This document shows positions 19,676-27,534 of a stretch of 39,290 bases of DNA, piece after piece. Position numbers and translations under genes: made by a program. Source of the stretch: a virus (lineage: Duplodnaviria > Heunggongvirae > Uroviricota > Caudoviricetes); the IMG/VR virus record IMGVR_UViG_2579778601_000004; one strand, 5' to 3'. Numbering within the stretch: position 1 is the first letter of the stretch; each line of letters begins with the position of its first letter. The notes beneath the pieces are model-generated. The model was not told the origin of the DNA and searched no databases. It saw nothing but the letters and a program-made list of their open reading frames with translations.

Positions 19676-19705
19676 AAATCATATATTTTATGTAAATCTG
19701 ATATT

Positions 19706-19734
19706 TTGCCAATGTTGTACGCACTGGCAGTAAT
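19706..19734 (+). promoter_or_regulatory. Candidate late promoter pR' (-35 TTGCCA, 17-bp spacer, -10 AGTAAT)
   Basis: Hexamers with 17-bp spacing immediately downstream of the Q-like gene; structured leader follows. Confidence 0.4.
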
Positions 19735-19742
19735 CCAAATTC

Positions 19743-19775
19743 AAGCCCGAGGTTTAAAGCCTTGGGCTTTTCTGT
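19743..19775 (+). terminator. Hairpin plus T-tract in the late leader (candidate pause or terminator)
   Basis: AAGCCCGAGG-TTTAAAG-CCTTGGGCTT followed by TTCTGTTTCTG. Confidence 0.4.
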
Positions 19776-20302: not shown

Positions 20303-20765
20303 TCCTCAGCGTAAAGCCTTCCTCGATATGTTGGCGTGGTCAGAAGGAACGGATAACGGGCGACAACCGACACGTAACCACGGTTATGATGTTATTGTTG
20401 GCGGCGAACTGTTTACTGATTACTCCGATCACCCTCGCAAACTTGTCACGCTACACCCCAAACTCAAATCAACAGCCGCCGGACGTTATCAGCTTCTTTC
20501 ACGCTGGTGGGATGCTTACCGTAAACAGCTTGGTTTGAAAGACTTCTCCCCCAAAAGCCAGGACGCAGTGGCATTACAGCAGATTAAAGAGCGTGGTGCT
20601 TTACCGATGATTGATCGCGGTGATATCCGTCAGGCAATCGACCGTTGCAGCAATATCTGGGCTTCACTGCCGGGCGCTGGTTATGGTCAGTTCGAGCATA
20701 AGGCTGACAGCCTGATTGCAAAATTCAAAGAAGCTGGCGGAACGCTCAGAGAGAGTGAGGTATGA
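20289..20765 (+). CDS. R: Endolysin R (lambda-type lytic transglycosylase)
   Basis: 158-aa translation recognised as near-identical to lambda R ([49 protein letters not shown]...). Confidence 0.95.
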
Positions 20766-21223
20766 GCAGAATAACCGCGATTATCTCCGCTCTGGTTATC
20801 TGCGTCATCGTCTGCCTTTCATGGGCGGTTAATCATTACCGCGATAACGCGATTACCTACAAAGCCCAGCGCGACAAAAATGCCAGAGAACTGACGCTGG
20901 CGAACGCGGCAATTACTGACATACAGATGCGTCAGCGTGATGTTGCTGCGCTCGATGCAAAATACACGAAGGAGTTAGCTGATGCGAAAGCTGAAAATGA
21001 TGCTCTGCGTGATGATGTTGCCGCTGGTCGTCGTCGGTTGCACATCAAAGCAGTCTGTCAGTCAGTGCGTGAAGCCACCACCGCCTCCGGCGTGGATAAT
21101 GCAGCCTCCCCCCGACTGGCAGACACCGCTGAACGGGATTATTTCACCCTCAGAGAGAGGCTGATCACTATGCAAAAACAACTGGAAGGAACCCAGAAGT
21201 ATATTAATGAGCAGTGCAGATAG
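20762..21223 (+). CDS. Rz: Spanin inner-membrane subunit Rz
   Basis: 153 aa with N-terminal TM segment and coiled-coil; recognised as lambda Rz; contains Rz1 in the +1 frame. Confidence 0.9.
20982..21164 (+). CDS. Rz1: Spanin outer-membrane lipoprotein Rz1 (embedded in Rz)
   Basis: 60 aa, lipobox VVGC, proline-rich (PPPPPAW); matches lambda Rz1. Confidence 0.9.
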
Positions 21224-21254
21224 AGCTGCCCATATCGATGGGCAACTCATGCAA

Positions 21255-21548
21255 TTATTGTGAGCAATACACACGCGCTTCCAGCGGAGTATAAATGCCT
21301 AAAGTAATAAAACCGAGCAATCCATTTACGAATGTTTGCTGGGTTTCTGTTTTAACAACATTTTCTGCACCACCACAAATTTTTGCTGCATCGACAGTTT
21401 TCTTCTGCCCAATTCCCGAAACGAAGAAATGATGGGTGATGGTTTCCTTTGGTGTTACTGCTGTAGGTTTGTTTCCAACAGTAAACGTCTGTTGAGCACA
21501 TCCTGTAATAAGCATTGCCAGAGCGGCAGAAAACAACATTTTTTTCAT
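21255..21548 (-). CDS. bor: Bor lipoprotein (serum-resistance lysogenic conversion protein)
   Basis: Start chosen at MKKMLFSAALAMLITGCAQQ (ATG 21548); remainder recognised as near-identical to lambda Bor. Confidence 0.9.
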   Translation of the reverse strand: MKKMLFSAALAMLITGCAQQTFTVGNKPTAVTPKETITHHFFVSGIGQKKTVDAAKICGGAENVVKTETQQTFVNGLLGFITLGIYTPLEARVYCSQ

Positions 21549-22028
21549 CTTATTATCCTGCATTGTTAAAAACGGCAGAATCCTATGTGACAACAATTAA
21601 ACGATAGTTAAATGGATTGATGAAAATTAAAACTACACAGGTGGGCTCAGACTATTGGAGGAAGTTGGGGACACTCAGAATCCTGTGGAATGAAATAAAC
21701 CGGTCTATCCGTCCATTACCCTTTTAGCTGCGCTGTATCGTCGCCGTATTCCCGCATTAACCATGACCGTAGCCCGACGGGGAATTCCTTCTGCGTGAGT
21801 GTGCGGGAATAATTAAAAACGATGCACACCGGGTTTTTACCGCGTTAATGATTCGCGGGTTTATCCCGGTGCGATGGTGGAAGAAACAGGAAGCTGTATT
21901 ACAGAAAGTGCTACTACTGTATCCCGATGCGATGTATGTAATGTGAGTCAGATAATGGCACAGGATGTGGTGATGTGGCAGTCTGGAACACAGGATATAT
22001 TGTCAGAATAAGACCCGTAGGAATAAAA

Positions 22029-22355
22029 ATGAAAAGACGCCTTTTACTACTTTTTCTGTTATCTGTCCTGGCAGTGGGATGCTCGCAGCAAAAAGCTGAT
22101 GAGCCCCGGCAATTAGTGACGGTGTATCCACGATATCCGGAATATGCTGCAGCAAATTATATCAAGGGGCTGGTTGAGGTTAAGTTCGATATTGGTGCTG
22201 ATGGGACTGTGACACGGATCGTTTTTCTCCGCTCAGAGCCTCATAATTTGTTTCGTGATGAAGTGGTGAAGGCCATGGCGAAATGGCGATTTGAAAAGAA
22301 TCGCCCCTGTCAGGGAGTGAAGAGACAATTTATCTTTACGCCGTCACGTCCTTGA
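22029..22355 (+). CDS. Lipoprotein with TonB C-terminal-like domain (putative envelope protein)
   Basis: Start at ATG 22029 (MKRRLLLLFLLSVLAVGCSQ, lipobox); YPRYPEYAAANYIKGLVEVKFDIGADGTVTRIVFLRSEPHNLFRDEVVKAMAKWRFE fits the TonB_C pattern. Confidence 0.55.
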   Translation: MKRRLLLLFLLSVLAVGCSQQKADEPRQLVTVYPRYPEYAAANYIKGLVEVKFDIGADGTVTRIVFLRSEPHNLFRDEVVKAMAKWRFEKNRPCQGVKRQFIFTPSRP

Positions 22356-22477
22356 TGCTTCCAGGTAGAGAGGGGCTGGAAGCAGGAGAAAAATGAAAGA
22401 GCCAGCGGTTATATTTTTGTCATGGCTGACGAGGAATGATGGAAGAAGGCGTTGTATGCCACACAACGCCTCACTGT

Positions 22478-22657
22478 TCATTTCTTCTTTTTCTCTGGTG
22501 GAACCCGATGAATAAGAGTTGCACTGGTTTCCGATGAGATGGCGATATACTCGGGCAAAGTATGCTGGCAGTTTTCCAACTGGTCAAAAATACCTGCTCT
22601 CGTCTGTTGCAATGCCTGCAGCATGCGGCGGCAATGCGCCTTGCTTTTACTAACCAT
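22478..22657 (-). CDS. Hypothetical small protein (59 aa from ATG 22657; a longer 117-aa reading from 22831 is possible)
   Basis: Internal ATG preceded by GAGGAAGG; lysine-rich C-terminus; the longer reading would overlap the upstream secreted-protein ORF. Confidence 0.3.
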   Translation of the reverse strand: MVSKSKAHCRRMLQALQQTRAGIFDQLENCQHTLPEYIAISSETSATLIHRVPPEKKKK

Positions 22658-22718
22658 CTTTCCTTCCTCTATCAGTCGCTGCGTGAACTCATCATGGAAT
22701 ACCAGGTAAATGCGGATG

Positions 22719-22970
22719 TTATCGGTTTTGGCTACGCAGCATAGTACAAAACGGACAGGTGCATCCCGGGACGGGGGAGGCGTCACATGTCCCTGTGATG
22801 GTTGTTCCGGGTAATGTACTGTGTGGGGCATAAAAATGTCCGATAATTTTACTTTCTACCGCAGTTAGTTGATTCGTTGGTCCTGGTAGCACATTGGGCG
22901 AGGATTTAAATGCCAGGCAACTGAAGGATGATGTCGCAAGGGAGATAGCGAGAATATTTCTGATTTTCAT
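22719..22970 (-). CDS. Hypothetical small secreted cysteine-rich protein (84 aa)
   Basis: Signal-peptide-like N-terminus (MKIRNILAISLATSSFSCLA); mature part has a Cys cluster (TGTCDASPVPGCTCPFC); ATG at 22970. No family recognised. Confidence 0.35.
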   Translation of the reverse strand: MKIRNILAISLATSSFSCLAFKSSPNVLPGPTNQLTAVESKIIGHFYAPHSTLPGTTITGTCDASPVPGCTCPFCTMLRSQNR

Positions 22971-23118
22971 TTGATGATGCCTCTGTGTGAAATGACGGTA
23001 AACGACGCACTTGTGCCGGCACATAATAGCAAGCACCATAATAGATCAGATTCGATTCTTGCTGTAAGTGATAATTATTCTCGTTTTCGGGTCCTTTCCG
23101 TCGATCCAACAGGTTACG

Positions 23119-23130
23119 GGGCGGCGACCT
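23119..23130. other. cos: cosN cohesive-end sequence (12-nt GGGCGGCGACCT) within the cos region
   Basis: Exact lambda left-end 12-mer, followed by lambda-like cosB/Nu1 upstream sequence (CGCGGGTTTTCGCTATTTATGAAAATTTTCCGG...). Confidence 0.85.
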
Positions 23131-23307
23131 CGCGGGTTTTCGCTATTTATGAAAATTTTCCGGTTTAAGGCGTTTCCGTTCTTCTTCGCCGTAACTTAAT
23201 GTTTTTATTTAAAACACTCCCTGAAAAGAAAGGAAACGACAGGTGCTGAAAACGGGCTTTTTGGCCTCTGTCGTTTCCTTTCTCTGTTTTTGTCCGTGGA
23301 ATGAACA

Positions 23308-23827
23308 ATGGAAGTCAACAAAAAGCAGCTGGCTGACATTTTCGGCGCGAGTATCCGTACTATTCAGAACTGGCAGGAGCAGGGAATGCCCGTTCTGCGA
23401 GGCGGTGGGAAGGGTAATGAGGTGCTTTATGACTCTGCCGACGTCATAAAATGGTATGCCGAAAGGGATGCTGAAATTGAGAACGAAAAGCTGCGCCGGG
23501 AGGTTGAAGAACTGCGACAGGCCAGCGAGACAGATCTCCAGCCAGGGACTATTGAGTACGAACGCCATCGACTTACGCGTGCGCAGGCCGACGCACAGGA
23601 GCTGAAAAATGCCAGAGACTCCGCTGAAGTGGTGGAAACCGCATTCTGTACTTTCGTGCTGTCGCGGATCGCAGGTGAAATTGCCAGTATTCTCGACGGG
23701 ATCCCCCTGTCGGTGCAGCGGCGTTTTCCGGAACTGGAAAACCGACATGTTGATTTCCTGAAACGGGATATCATCAAAGCCATGAACAAAGCAGCCGCGC
23801 TGGATGAACTGATACCGGGGTTGCTGA

Positions 23828-23853
<26 letters not shown>
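23308..23853 (+). CDS. nu1: Terminase small subunit Nu1
   Basis: Recognised as near-identical to lambda Nu1 (MEVNKKQLADIFGASIRTIQNWQEQGMPVLRGGGKGNEVLYDS...). Confidence 0.95.

Positions 23854-27534
<3,681 letters not shown>

Follow-up and report, generated by a model that had tools for sequence, protein, structure and literature searches.

A predicted prophage lipoprotein with a TonB C-terminal domain, encoded between bor and cos of a lambdoid phage

We analysed a 39,290-nucleotide stretch of Caudoviricetes DNA (IMG/VR record IMGVR_UViG_2579778601_000004; the whole of this stretch is called the window below) and focused on a gene of 108 codons on its plus strand, read from an ATG at 22029 to a TGA at 22353-22355. 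Its product, here named the TonB_C lipoprotein, is a member of the TonB_C domain family and bears a lipoprotein signal that predicts attachment to the outer membrane. The gene is a moron: it is expressed in the lysogen, as published RNA sequencing (RNA-seq) of Escherichia coli LF82 shows, and is dispensable for the lytic cycle, lambda and many other lambdoid phages being without it. We tentatively suggest that the protein may act as a decoy, competing with TonB and lowering the entry of TonB-dependent agents. The gene had already been annotated in phage 21 and by the NCBI Prokaryotic Genome Annotation Pipeline (PGAP) and flagged as an expressed moron in LF82; the observation itself is therefore not new, and the novelty, which a preliminary description of this DNA had left uncertain, is lowered. 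The function of the protein appears to be unpublished.

TonB C-terminal domain

The preliminary description had seen a TonB C-terminal pattern in the mature region and had made this reading depend on a TonB_C profile match. Such a match was obtained with Pfam TonB_C (PF03544, residues 33-99, 49.2 bits against a cut-off of 24.6, E=7.3e-13) and with TIGR01352 tonB_Cterm (47.4 bits against a cut-off of 27.1), and BLASTP and structure prediction agreed with the two profiles. In BLASTP, residues 23-103 were aligned without gaps to residues 150-230 of E. coli TonB, with 41% identity over 81 residues (E=7e-20), and the sequence matches in the PDB were the TonB C-terminal domain (CTD) entries 1u07, 1xx3, 2gsk and 2grx. 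In the gap-free alignment the YP motif is retained (Y36 P37, corresponding to Y163 P164 of TonB), as are five aromatic positions: F53, F75, W86, F88 and F103, which correspond to F180, F202, W213, Y215 and F230. Across 25 homologues P37, F75, W86 and F88 were invariant and Y36 nearly so. The last beta-strand (residues 94-103) is also retained, and the protein ends five residues beyond it, with TPSRP. All the family features that we examined were thus present.

The AlphaFold2 (AF2) model was built from an alignment of the 25 homologues; an earlier alignment of seven sequences had given an unusable predicted local distance difference test score (pLDDT) of 55. With 25 sequences the pLDDT was 86 overall and above 90 across the domain; it was below 50 at residues 17-21 and ~95 from the 31-40 block onward. 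When this model was used as a query in Foldseek, all top matches were TonB CTDs (target-normalised TM score 0.91-0.92, root-mean-square deviation (rmsd) 0.9-1.5 Å), among them TonB bound to BtuB (2gsk_B, TM score 0.92, rmsd 1.0 Å) and TonB bound to FhuA (2grx_C, rmsd 0.9 Å). A fold search of BFVD gave no significant viral match (best E = 0.14).

The phage protein therefore shares with the E. coli TonB CTD (~150-239) its fold, homology, YP motif and five aromatic positions, whereas it differs from TonB in having a lipoprotein signal and in lacking the last ~4-9 TonB residues. Four further positions are substituted: R158 of TonB is replaced by T31, Q160 by Y33 (Leu in the type-2 proteins described below), R166 by Y39 and R171 by Y44. 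We rejected membership of the TonB energy transducers, as there is neither an inner-membrane anchor nor a proline-rich spacer and the scores with the TonB equivalog models (NCBIfam PRK10819 equivalogs) were 45-69 bits against cut-offs of 265-448, with only the last ~85 positions aligned. Without a membrane anchor that couples to ExbB/ExbD and without the spacer, the protein cannot transduce energy. None of the combination of a TonB_C domain, a lipobox and a position between bor and cos (Table 1) can be explained by chance.

Lipoprotein signal and predicted location

The lipoprotein signal was assigned by inspecting the sequence and not by a dedicated predictor. The N-terminus, MKRRLLLLFLLSVLAVG-C18-SQQ, has a basic n-region, a hydrophobic core and an A-V-G-C lipobox; everything expected of a lipoprotein (these three elements, with the lipobox cysteine within the first ~35 residues) was found. 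The signal peptide starts at the ATG at 22029. An in-frame GTG at 21975 is an alternative start that would add 18 residues, although the ATG is the start found in the homologues, called by PGAP and annotated in phage 21. The lipobox cysteine is kept in the E. coli alleles and in most of the distant homologues. The claim of a lipoprotein of roughly 108 residues made in the preliminary description could thus be upheld.

Cys18 is predicted to be the acylated first residue of the mature protein. Sorting of lipoproteins follows the residue at position +2, which is Ser19 in the window protein and Thr or Ala in other alleles; the lack of an Asp at this position predicts Lol-dependent export and sorting to the outer membrane. 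The lipid anchor and the folded domain are separated by a short segment, SQQKADE, that differs between alleles and presumably serves as a tether.

We also noticed that the mature protein contains only one additional cysteine, C94 (22308-22310), which lies in the loop preceding the last strand. The type-2 phage alleles and two Erwinia homologues (P0181 and P0182) share this cysteine, whereas other alleles have Arg there. As C94 lacks a partner within the protein, a disulfide with another molecule is conceivable.

Distribution, selection and expression in the lysogen

By tblastn the TonB_C lipoprotein was found in only 15 phage records. Lambda was not one of them, and the DNA similarity of the window to lambda ends at ~21837; lambda thus has no homologue at this spot, contrary to a possibility raised earlier. 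The protein of phages 21, PhiR47_2, PhiR57_1, PhiR63_2, ev017 and Perceval is identical to that of the window (type 1), that of JLK-2012, the Stx1a phages and Lys8385Vzw is 72% identical to it (type 2), and a third phage version, from a Klebsiella phage, is 41.5% identical. Among 5426 complete E. coli genomes, type 1 was present in 1225 and type 2 in 415, with both in at least one genome; up to ~30% of complete E. coli genomes carry the gene, and in more than 1,200 of the E. coli genomes PGAP names the product 'TonB family protein'. Carriers include the strain Nissle 1917, the LF82 prophage Perceval and Shiga-toxin phages.

The gene occupies the same slot, after the lysis cassette, before the small terminase gene and on the strand of the late operon, in four different backbones, namely phage 21, JLK-2012 together with the Stx1a phages, the Klebsiella phage, and a lambdoid prophage of Rahnella, in which a homologue with 31% identity over the full protein lies between Rz and the terminase genes. 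In an exhaustive HMMER search the closest relatives outside E. coli were other small proteins of 107-133 amino acids, most of them with a lipobox. When only the domain was compared, identity was 40-44% to genuine TonBs and 35-50% to the small TonB_C proteins. The domain is no closer to true TonBs than to the small homologues, which argues for an old separate lineage and not for a recent piece of E. coli tonB. The orphan Enterobacterales proteins (from Raoultella, Erwinia, Serratia, Shimwellia and Rahnella) share the architecture of the phage protein, are also called 'TonB family protein' by PGAP and are equally uncharacterised; they differ in that many lie on the chromosome without phage genes in the vicinity. 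Such chromosomal genes for small secreted proteins consisting only of TonB_C were seen in Raoultella, Erwinia, Serratia and Shimwellia, in mutually unrelated contexts: next to lacZ/lacI, araBA, cellulose synthase genes or a gene for a SIR2-domain protein.

Among the loci fetched there were 88 full-length copies of the gene. Between type 1 and type 2 the rate of nonsynonymous substitution (dN) was 0.18 and that of synonymous substitution (dS) 1.5, giving dN/dS=0.12. Seven variant alleles of type 1, differing by 1-3 nucleotides, had purely synonymous changes, and one more allele had nine nucleotide and four amino acid differences. Judged by this pattern of substitution, the gene is real, functional and under purifying selection. 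Similarity to the type-2 cassette, as present in phage JLK-2012, was limited to 21729-22338, which comprises the gene and ~300 bp upstream; the gene and the upstream stretch therefore behave as one mobile cassette.

Within this cassette the non-coding plus-strand segment 21729-21895 was ~95% identical between the two types, whereas the coding region was only ~73% identical at the DNA level. The segment contains a nested hairpin at ~21826-21872. Portions of the segment were seen in 432 phage records (lambda, 933W and VT2-Sakai among them), in every case following the lysis genes. Folding of 21725-22040 gave z = -2.25, and no Rfam match was found in the conserved element. Possible roles of this stretch are those of a promoter region, an RNA element or a recombination boundary. 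A GATAAT at 21951-21956 is conserved; the best alignment there, in the type-2 allele, matches by manual count about half of the 19-bp Fur-box consensus. The upstream open reading frame (ORF) at 21874-22011, annotated in phage 21 as CPT_21_72, was rejected as a coding sequence, since the type-1/type-2 alignment contains frame-breaking indels and there is no Pfam match.

Expression of the gene has been recorded in the adherent-invasive strain LF82, where its counterpart in prophage Perceval, LF82_160 ("TonB fragment"), is listed as an expressed moron and was 8-fold above the prophage background in lysogeny broth (LB) (PMC9928086). The LF82_160 protein is identical to that of the window. In all ten samples LF82_160 had log2 values of 5.0-6.6, those of the adjacent endolysin, Rz and terminase genes being 2.3-4.4 (PMC9928086, supplementary table). 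With a transcript above those of its late-gene neighbours, the gene is therefore transcribed independently in the lysogen. In macrophages its log2 fold change was 0.26 and not significant, whereas bor was strongly induced in Dulbecco's modified Eagle's medium (DMEM) and in macrophages (PMC9928086). Many lambdoid phages besides lambda do without the gene.

Possible function as a TonB decoy

The preliminary description had proposed that the protein competes for TonB boxes and thereby contributes to superinfection exclusion or colicin protection. We consider this plausible, and the mechanism would be as follows. By the established rules for lipoproteins, the protein would be acylated at Cys18, and a tether of ~8 residues would hold the domain directly under the periplasmic face of the TonB-dependent transporters. 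In the complexes with BtuB and FhuA, the TonB box pairs, as an added strand, with the last beta-strand of the TonB CTD; by such strand addition the phage domain could bind TonB boxes, or alternatively it could pair with the CTD of the host TonB. Free TonB would have a short strand at its end that gives way to the TonB box; if this is so, the binding edge of the phage protein, which ends with TPSRP after the last strand, would be permanently open. Binding would deliver no energy, because the protein lacks the inner-membrane anchor, the proline-rich spacer and any link to ExbB/ExbD, and it would thus compete with the real TonB. The lysogen would become less permeable to phages of the T1 and phi80 type, group B colicins, some microcins and albomycin, at the cost of a partial loss of siderophore and vitamin B12 uptake.

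The decoy mechanism has good precedent, although it is unproven. Periplasmic fragments of TonB are reported to inhibit transport by FecA and FhuA (Howard, Herrmann, Stratilo & Braun 2001, J Bacteriol 183:5885). As in the phage protein, a periplasmic C-terminal part without the energy-coupling N-terminus is present in these engineered fragments; they were, however, made in the laboratory, soluble and overexpressed, whereas the phage protein is natural, presumably fixed to the outer membrane by its tether, and only 41% identical to TonB. An analogy is offered by the T5 lipoprotein Llp: located in the outer membrane's inner leaflet, it disables FhuA from within the periplasm (bioRxiv 10.64898/2026.03.26.714494). 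Together with Llp, the Cor proteins of phi80, N15 and HK022 form a group of small phage lipoproteins of this leaflet that exclude phages by acting on a TonB-dependent transporter from the periplasm. Llp acts allosterically on the plug and loops of FhuA, whereas the mode proposed for the phage protein is mimicry of TonB; the cor genes adjoin tail genes, whereas the gene studied here lies near cos. No homology to Llp or Cor was seen in the Pfam and PHROG searches, in which only TonB_C, PHROG 1267 and PHROG 34172 were matched. Bor and Iss are also small outer-membrane lipoproteins expressed from prophages; Bor, however, belongs to another family (Lambda_Bor), is encoded on the opposite strand and is regulated differently, being induced in DMEM and macrophages in LF82.

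Several points weigh against a decoy. Our literature searches yielded no report of a phenotype, localisation or binding of the TonB_C lipoprotein, and PADLOC gave no match for it. The LF82_160 mRNA is moderate in amount and does not respond to DMEM or macrophage conditions (PMC9928086). A consensus scan of 21200-23400 found no sigma-70 promoter on the plus strand, and manual inspection of the segments conserved between the two types did not reveal a convincing -35/-10 pair. The changed positions correspond to R158, Q160, R166 and R171 of TonB, which we take to lie near the TonB box or the transporter. Since the transporters can far outnumber TonB, titration may need more protein than is made. 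Finally, the gene is common in extraintestinal strains, Nissle 1917 and pathogens among them, for which TonB-driven iron uptake is essential; a strong general block would seem costly to such carriers, and any effect must therefore be mild, conditional or receptor-specific.

The last of these leads to an alternative that we regard as unlikely, though worth keeping in mind: the protein might bind a single transporter, or a small number of them, through which rival phages or colicins enter, and leave most of the iron uptake intact. The altered surface residues T31, Y33, Y39 and Y44 at transporter-facing positions would suit such a blocker, as would the frequency of the gene in strains that need TonB, and Llp and Cor are examples of phage lipoproteins able to disable one particular transporter from within the periplasm. 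Nothing, however, points to any particular target, and the pairing with TonB boxes is mostly mediated by the backbone, hence promiscuous. The receptor of the carrier phages does not help either. The window ends before J, and the C-terminus of phage 21 J is 57% identical to that of lambda and 55% to that of 434, from which the receptor of the carrier phage cannot be inferred; the J proteins of phi80, N15 and HK022 were not among the 40 matches listed, out of 263, when this C-terminus was used as a query.

It is distinctly unlikely, in our view, that the protein has nothing to do with TonB boxes and is instead a lipoprotein of envelope structure or host interaction, either as a tether that binds peptidoglycan and so links the outer membrane to the cell wall or as a surface factor that alters serum or stress resistance like Bor/Iss. 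The gene adjoins bor/iss and is carried together with envelope morons, a porin and sitABCD, the orphan homologues of Raoultella, Erwinia and Serratia lie on chromosomes in unrelated contexts, and the TonB CTD has been proposed to bind peptidoglycan; all of this fits such a role. On the other hand, the residues conserved throughout the family are those that define the TonB CTD fold, and searches of Pfam, NCBIfam and PHROG matched no known family of serum-resistance or peptidoglycan-binding proteins.

A function late in the lytic cycle, in lysis or in guarding progeny virions from being lost on receptor-bearing debris, would agree with the position and strand just after Rz/Rz1, kept in at least four backbones, and with the match to PHROG 1267 (5e-43), which is labelled 'Rz-like spanin'. 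We hold it to be highly unlikely: the window already encodes a separate Rz and Rz1, transcription during LF82 lysogeny is independent of the late-gene neighbours (PMC9928086), and lambda and many other lambdoid phages lack the gene. The identity of a spanin was rejected, given the folded TonB_C domain, the lack of a C-terminal membrane or hydrophobic segment and the presence of separate Rz/Rz1 genes; the protein resembles neither an Rz-type coiled coil of the inner membrane nor a short proline-rich lipoprotein of the Rz1 type. The label of PHROG 1267 appears to be a mis-annotation based on position and could spread to new phage genomes.

That the gene is a non-functional captured fragment of host tonB, as the database names 'partial tonB-like' and 'TonB fragment' and a frameshifted allele cluster (P0003) might suggest, is essentially excluded by the selection and expression data, i.e. 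a dN/dS of 0.12 with synonymous sites near saturation, 88 full-length copies and transcription in the lysogen, and is opposed also by the protein's own lipoprotein signal, absent from TonB, and by a domain identity of 40-44% to true TonBs, no higher than to the small homologues, which speaks for an old capture.

Association with sitABCD and implications

Returning to the decoy, its cost in iron might be met by another cargo of the prophage. Type 1 occurs together with sitABCD in phage 21, Perceval, ev017, the three PhiR phages and the Nissle prophage integrated in icd. Of the type-1 phage records, 7/7 contain sitA, whereas ~19 sit-positive phage records have no TonB_C gene; the type-2 phages and the Klebsiella phage lack sitA. 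The prophage from which the window derives probably carries sitABCD beyond the right end of the window, as the near-identical PhiR47_2 has SitA. SitABCD is a TonB-independent ABC importer of Fe and Mn and could offset a damped TonB-dependent uptake, although the association of the two may be simple co-inheritance. A two-part conversion module of the phage 21 lineage, in which the TonB gateway is partially shut by an outer-membrane-bound TonB mimic and SitABCD offsets the iron cost, strikes us as improbable; if it did exist, it would 'close the door, open a side entrance', and exclusion by mimicry of the energy transducer is not known to have been described for any phage.

In phage 21 sitABCD is at 21967-25416, and it is found in the Nissle 1917 prophage as well. 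Some of the type-1 carriers also have a prophage porin (NmpC/OmpC-like) and iss/bor.

If interference with TonB is true, it would represent a new kind of host protection by prophages, in which the energy transducer is mimicked rather than a single receptor plugged. The sensitivity of many clinical and probiotic strains to TonB-dependent phages, colicins, microcins and siderophore-conjugated antibiotics could then be altered, with a bearing on phage therapy and 'Trojan horse' drugs, and the protein would offer a natural tool for probing how TonB engages transporters. If the decoy is false, the protein is still a very common prophage envelope protein.

Gene neighbourhood

The features of the gene and its surroundings are listed in Table 1. 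The placement between bor and cos given in the preliminary description was confirmed: bor lies to the left on the opposite strand, and cosN is 764 bp downstream of the TonB_C lipoprotein gene. Upstream are the genes for holin, endolysin, Rz and Rz1, and to the right of cos is Nu1, followed by A.

Table 1. Coordinates in the window of the TonB_C lipoprotein gene, its parts and the neighbouring features.
Feature	Position	Strand	Evidence
TonB_C lipoprotein gene, complete, stop included	22029-22355	+	ORF list, sequence, Pfam and NCBIfam TonB_C matches, phage 21 identity, dN/dS
Shine-Dalgarno-like AGGA	22019-22022	+	6 nt before the ATG; phage 21 has a ribosome-binding site annotated at the same spot
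Signal peptide and lipobox, residues 1-18 (MKRRLLLLFLLSVLAVG-C), predicted	22029-22082	+	Read from the sequence
Short tether, ~7-8 residues (SQQKADE), from lipid anchor to folded domain, predicted	22083-22103	+	AF2 pLDDT, allele variation
TonB C-terminal domain, residues 26-103 (= E. coli TonB 153-230)	22104-22337	+	BLASTP, PDB matches, AF2, Foldseek
Upstream region co-inherited with the gene as a cassette; presumed site of a lysogen-active promoter	21729-22028	+	Type-1/type-2 similarity
bor, outer-membrane lipoprotein moron next door	21255-21548	-	Pfam Lambda_Bor, 106 bits
cosN cohesive-end sequence GGGCGGCGACCT	23119-23130	+	Junction of the right and left ends of phage 21 mapped onto the window
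Rz	20762-21223		Pfam Phage_lysis, 182 bits
Rz1	20982-21164		72 bits

From 21200 to 23118 the window matches the right end of classical phage 21 (OL657228) with 100% identity; the counterpart of the gene there is CPT_21_73, annotated as "TonB C-terminal domain protein". The closest relative of the window is PhiR47_2, with a match of 99.8% along the full 2.2 kb. To the right of cos (cosB, Nu1 and A), the window and phage 21 are only 66-71% identical, Nu1 scoring 333 bits with Pfam Phage_Nu1. With complete identity on the left of cos and 66-71% on the right, the window is therefore a mosaic with a junction at cos.

Two minus-strand ORFs lie between the gene and cos, one of 117 amino acids (22478-22831) and one of 106 amino acids (22719-23039). 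Neither had a Pfam match, and PADLOC gave only a marginal match for the 106-residue product (E=0.042); the 117-residue product matches a coding sequence of PhiR47_2 annotated as 'hypothetical protein'. Sigma-70-like sites are present on the minus strand at 22587-22559 and 22991-22963. The annotation of phage 21 differs in this part and has small plus-strand ORFs, corresponding to 22393-22515 and 22562-22744 of the window.

Three other observations were made further to the left. The early region contains a large adhesin-like cargo gene, an ORF of 1421 codons at 9252-13517 (plus strand) that encodes an intimin/invasin-type inverse autotransporter (338 bits with Pfam IAT_beta) containing several Big_1 and Invasin_D3 repeats. 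On the minus strand, at 13829-16245 and 16316-17137, a complete IS66-family element, consisting of a 537-residue transposase, a TnpB-like Orf2 and a helix-turn-helix Orf1, adjoins an alpha/beta-hydrolase esterase gene (Pfam BD-FAE, 125 bits). At 19691-19770 (plus strand) there is a sub-threshold Rfam match to isrJ, an Hfq-binding small RNA (30.4 bits against a gathering score of 37, E=0.008); a late promoter with its short terminated transcript would be expected at this place, directly 3' of the gene for the Q antiterminator.

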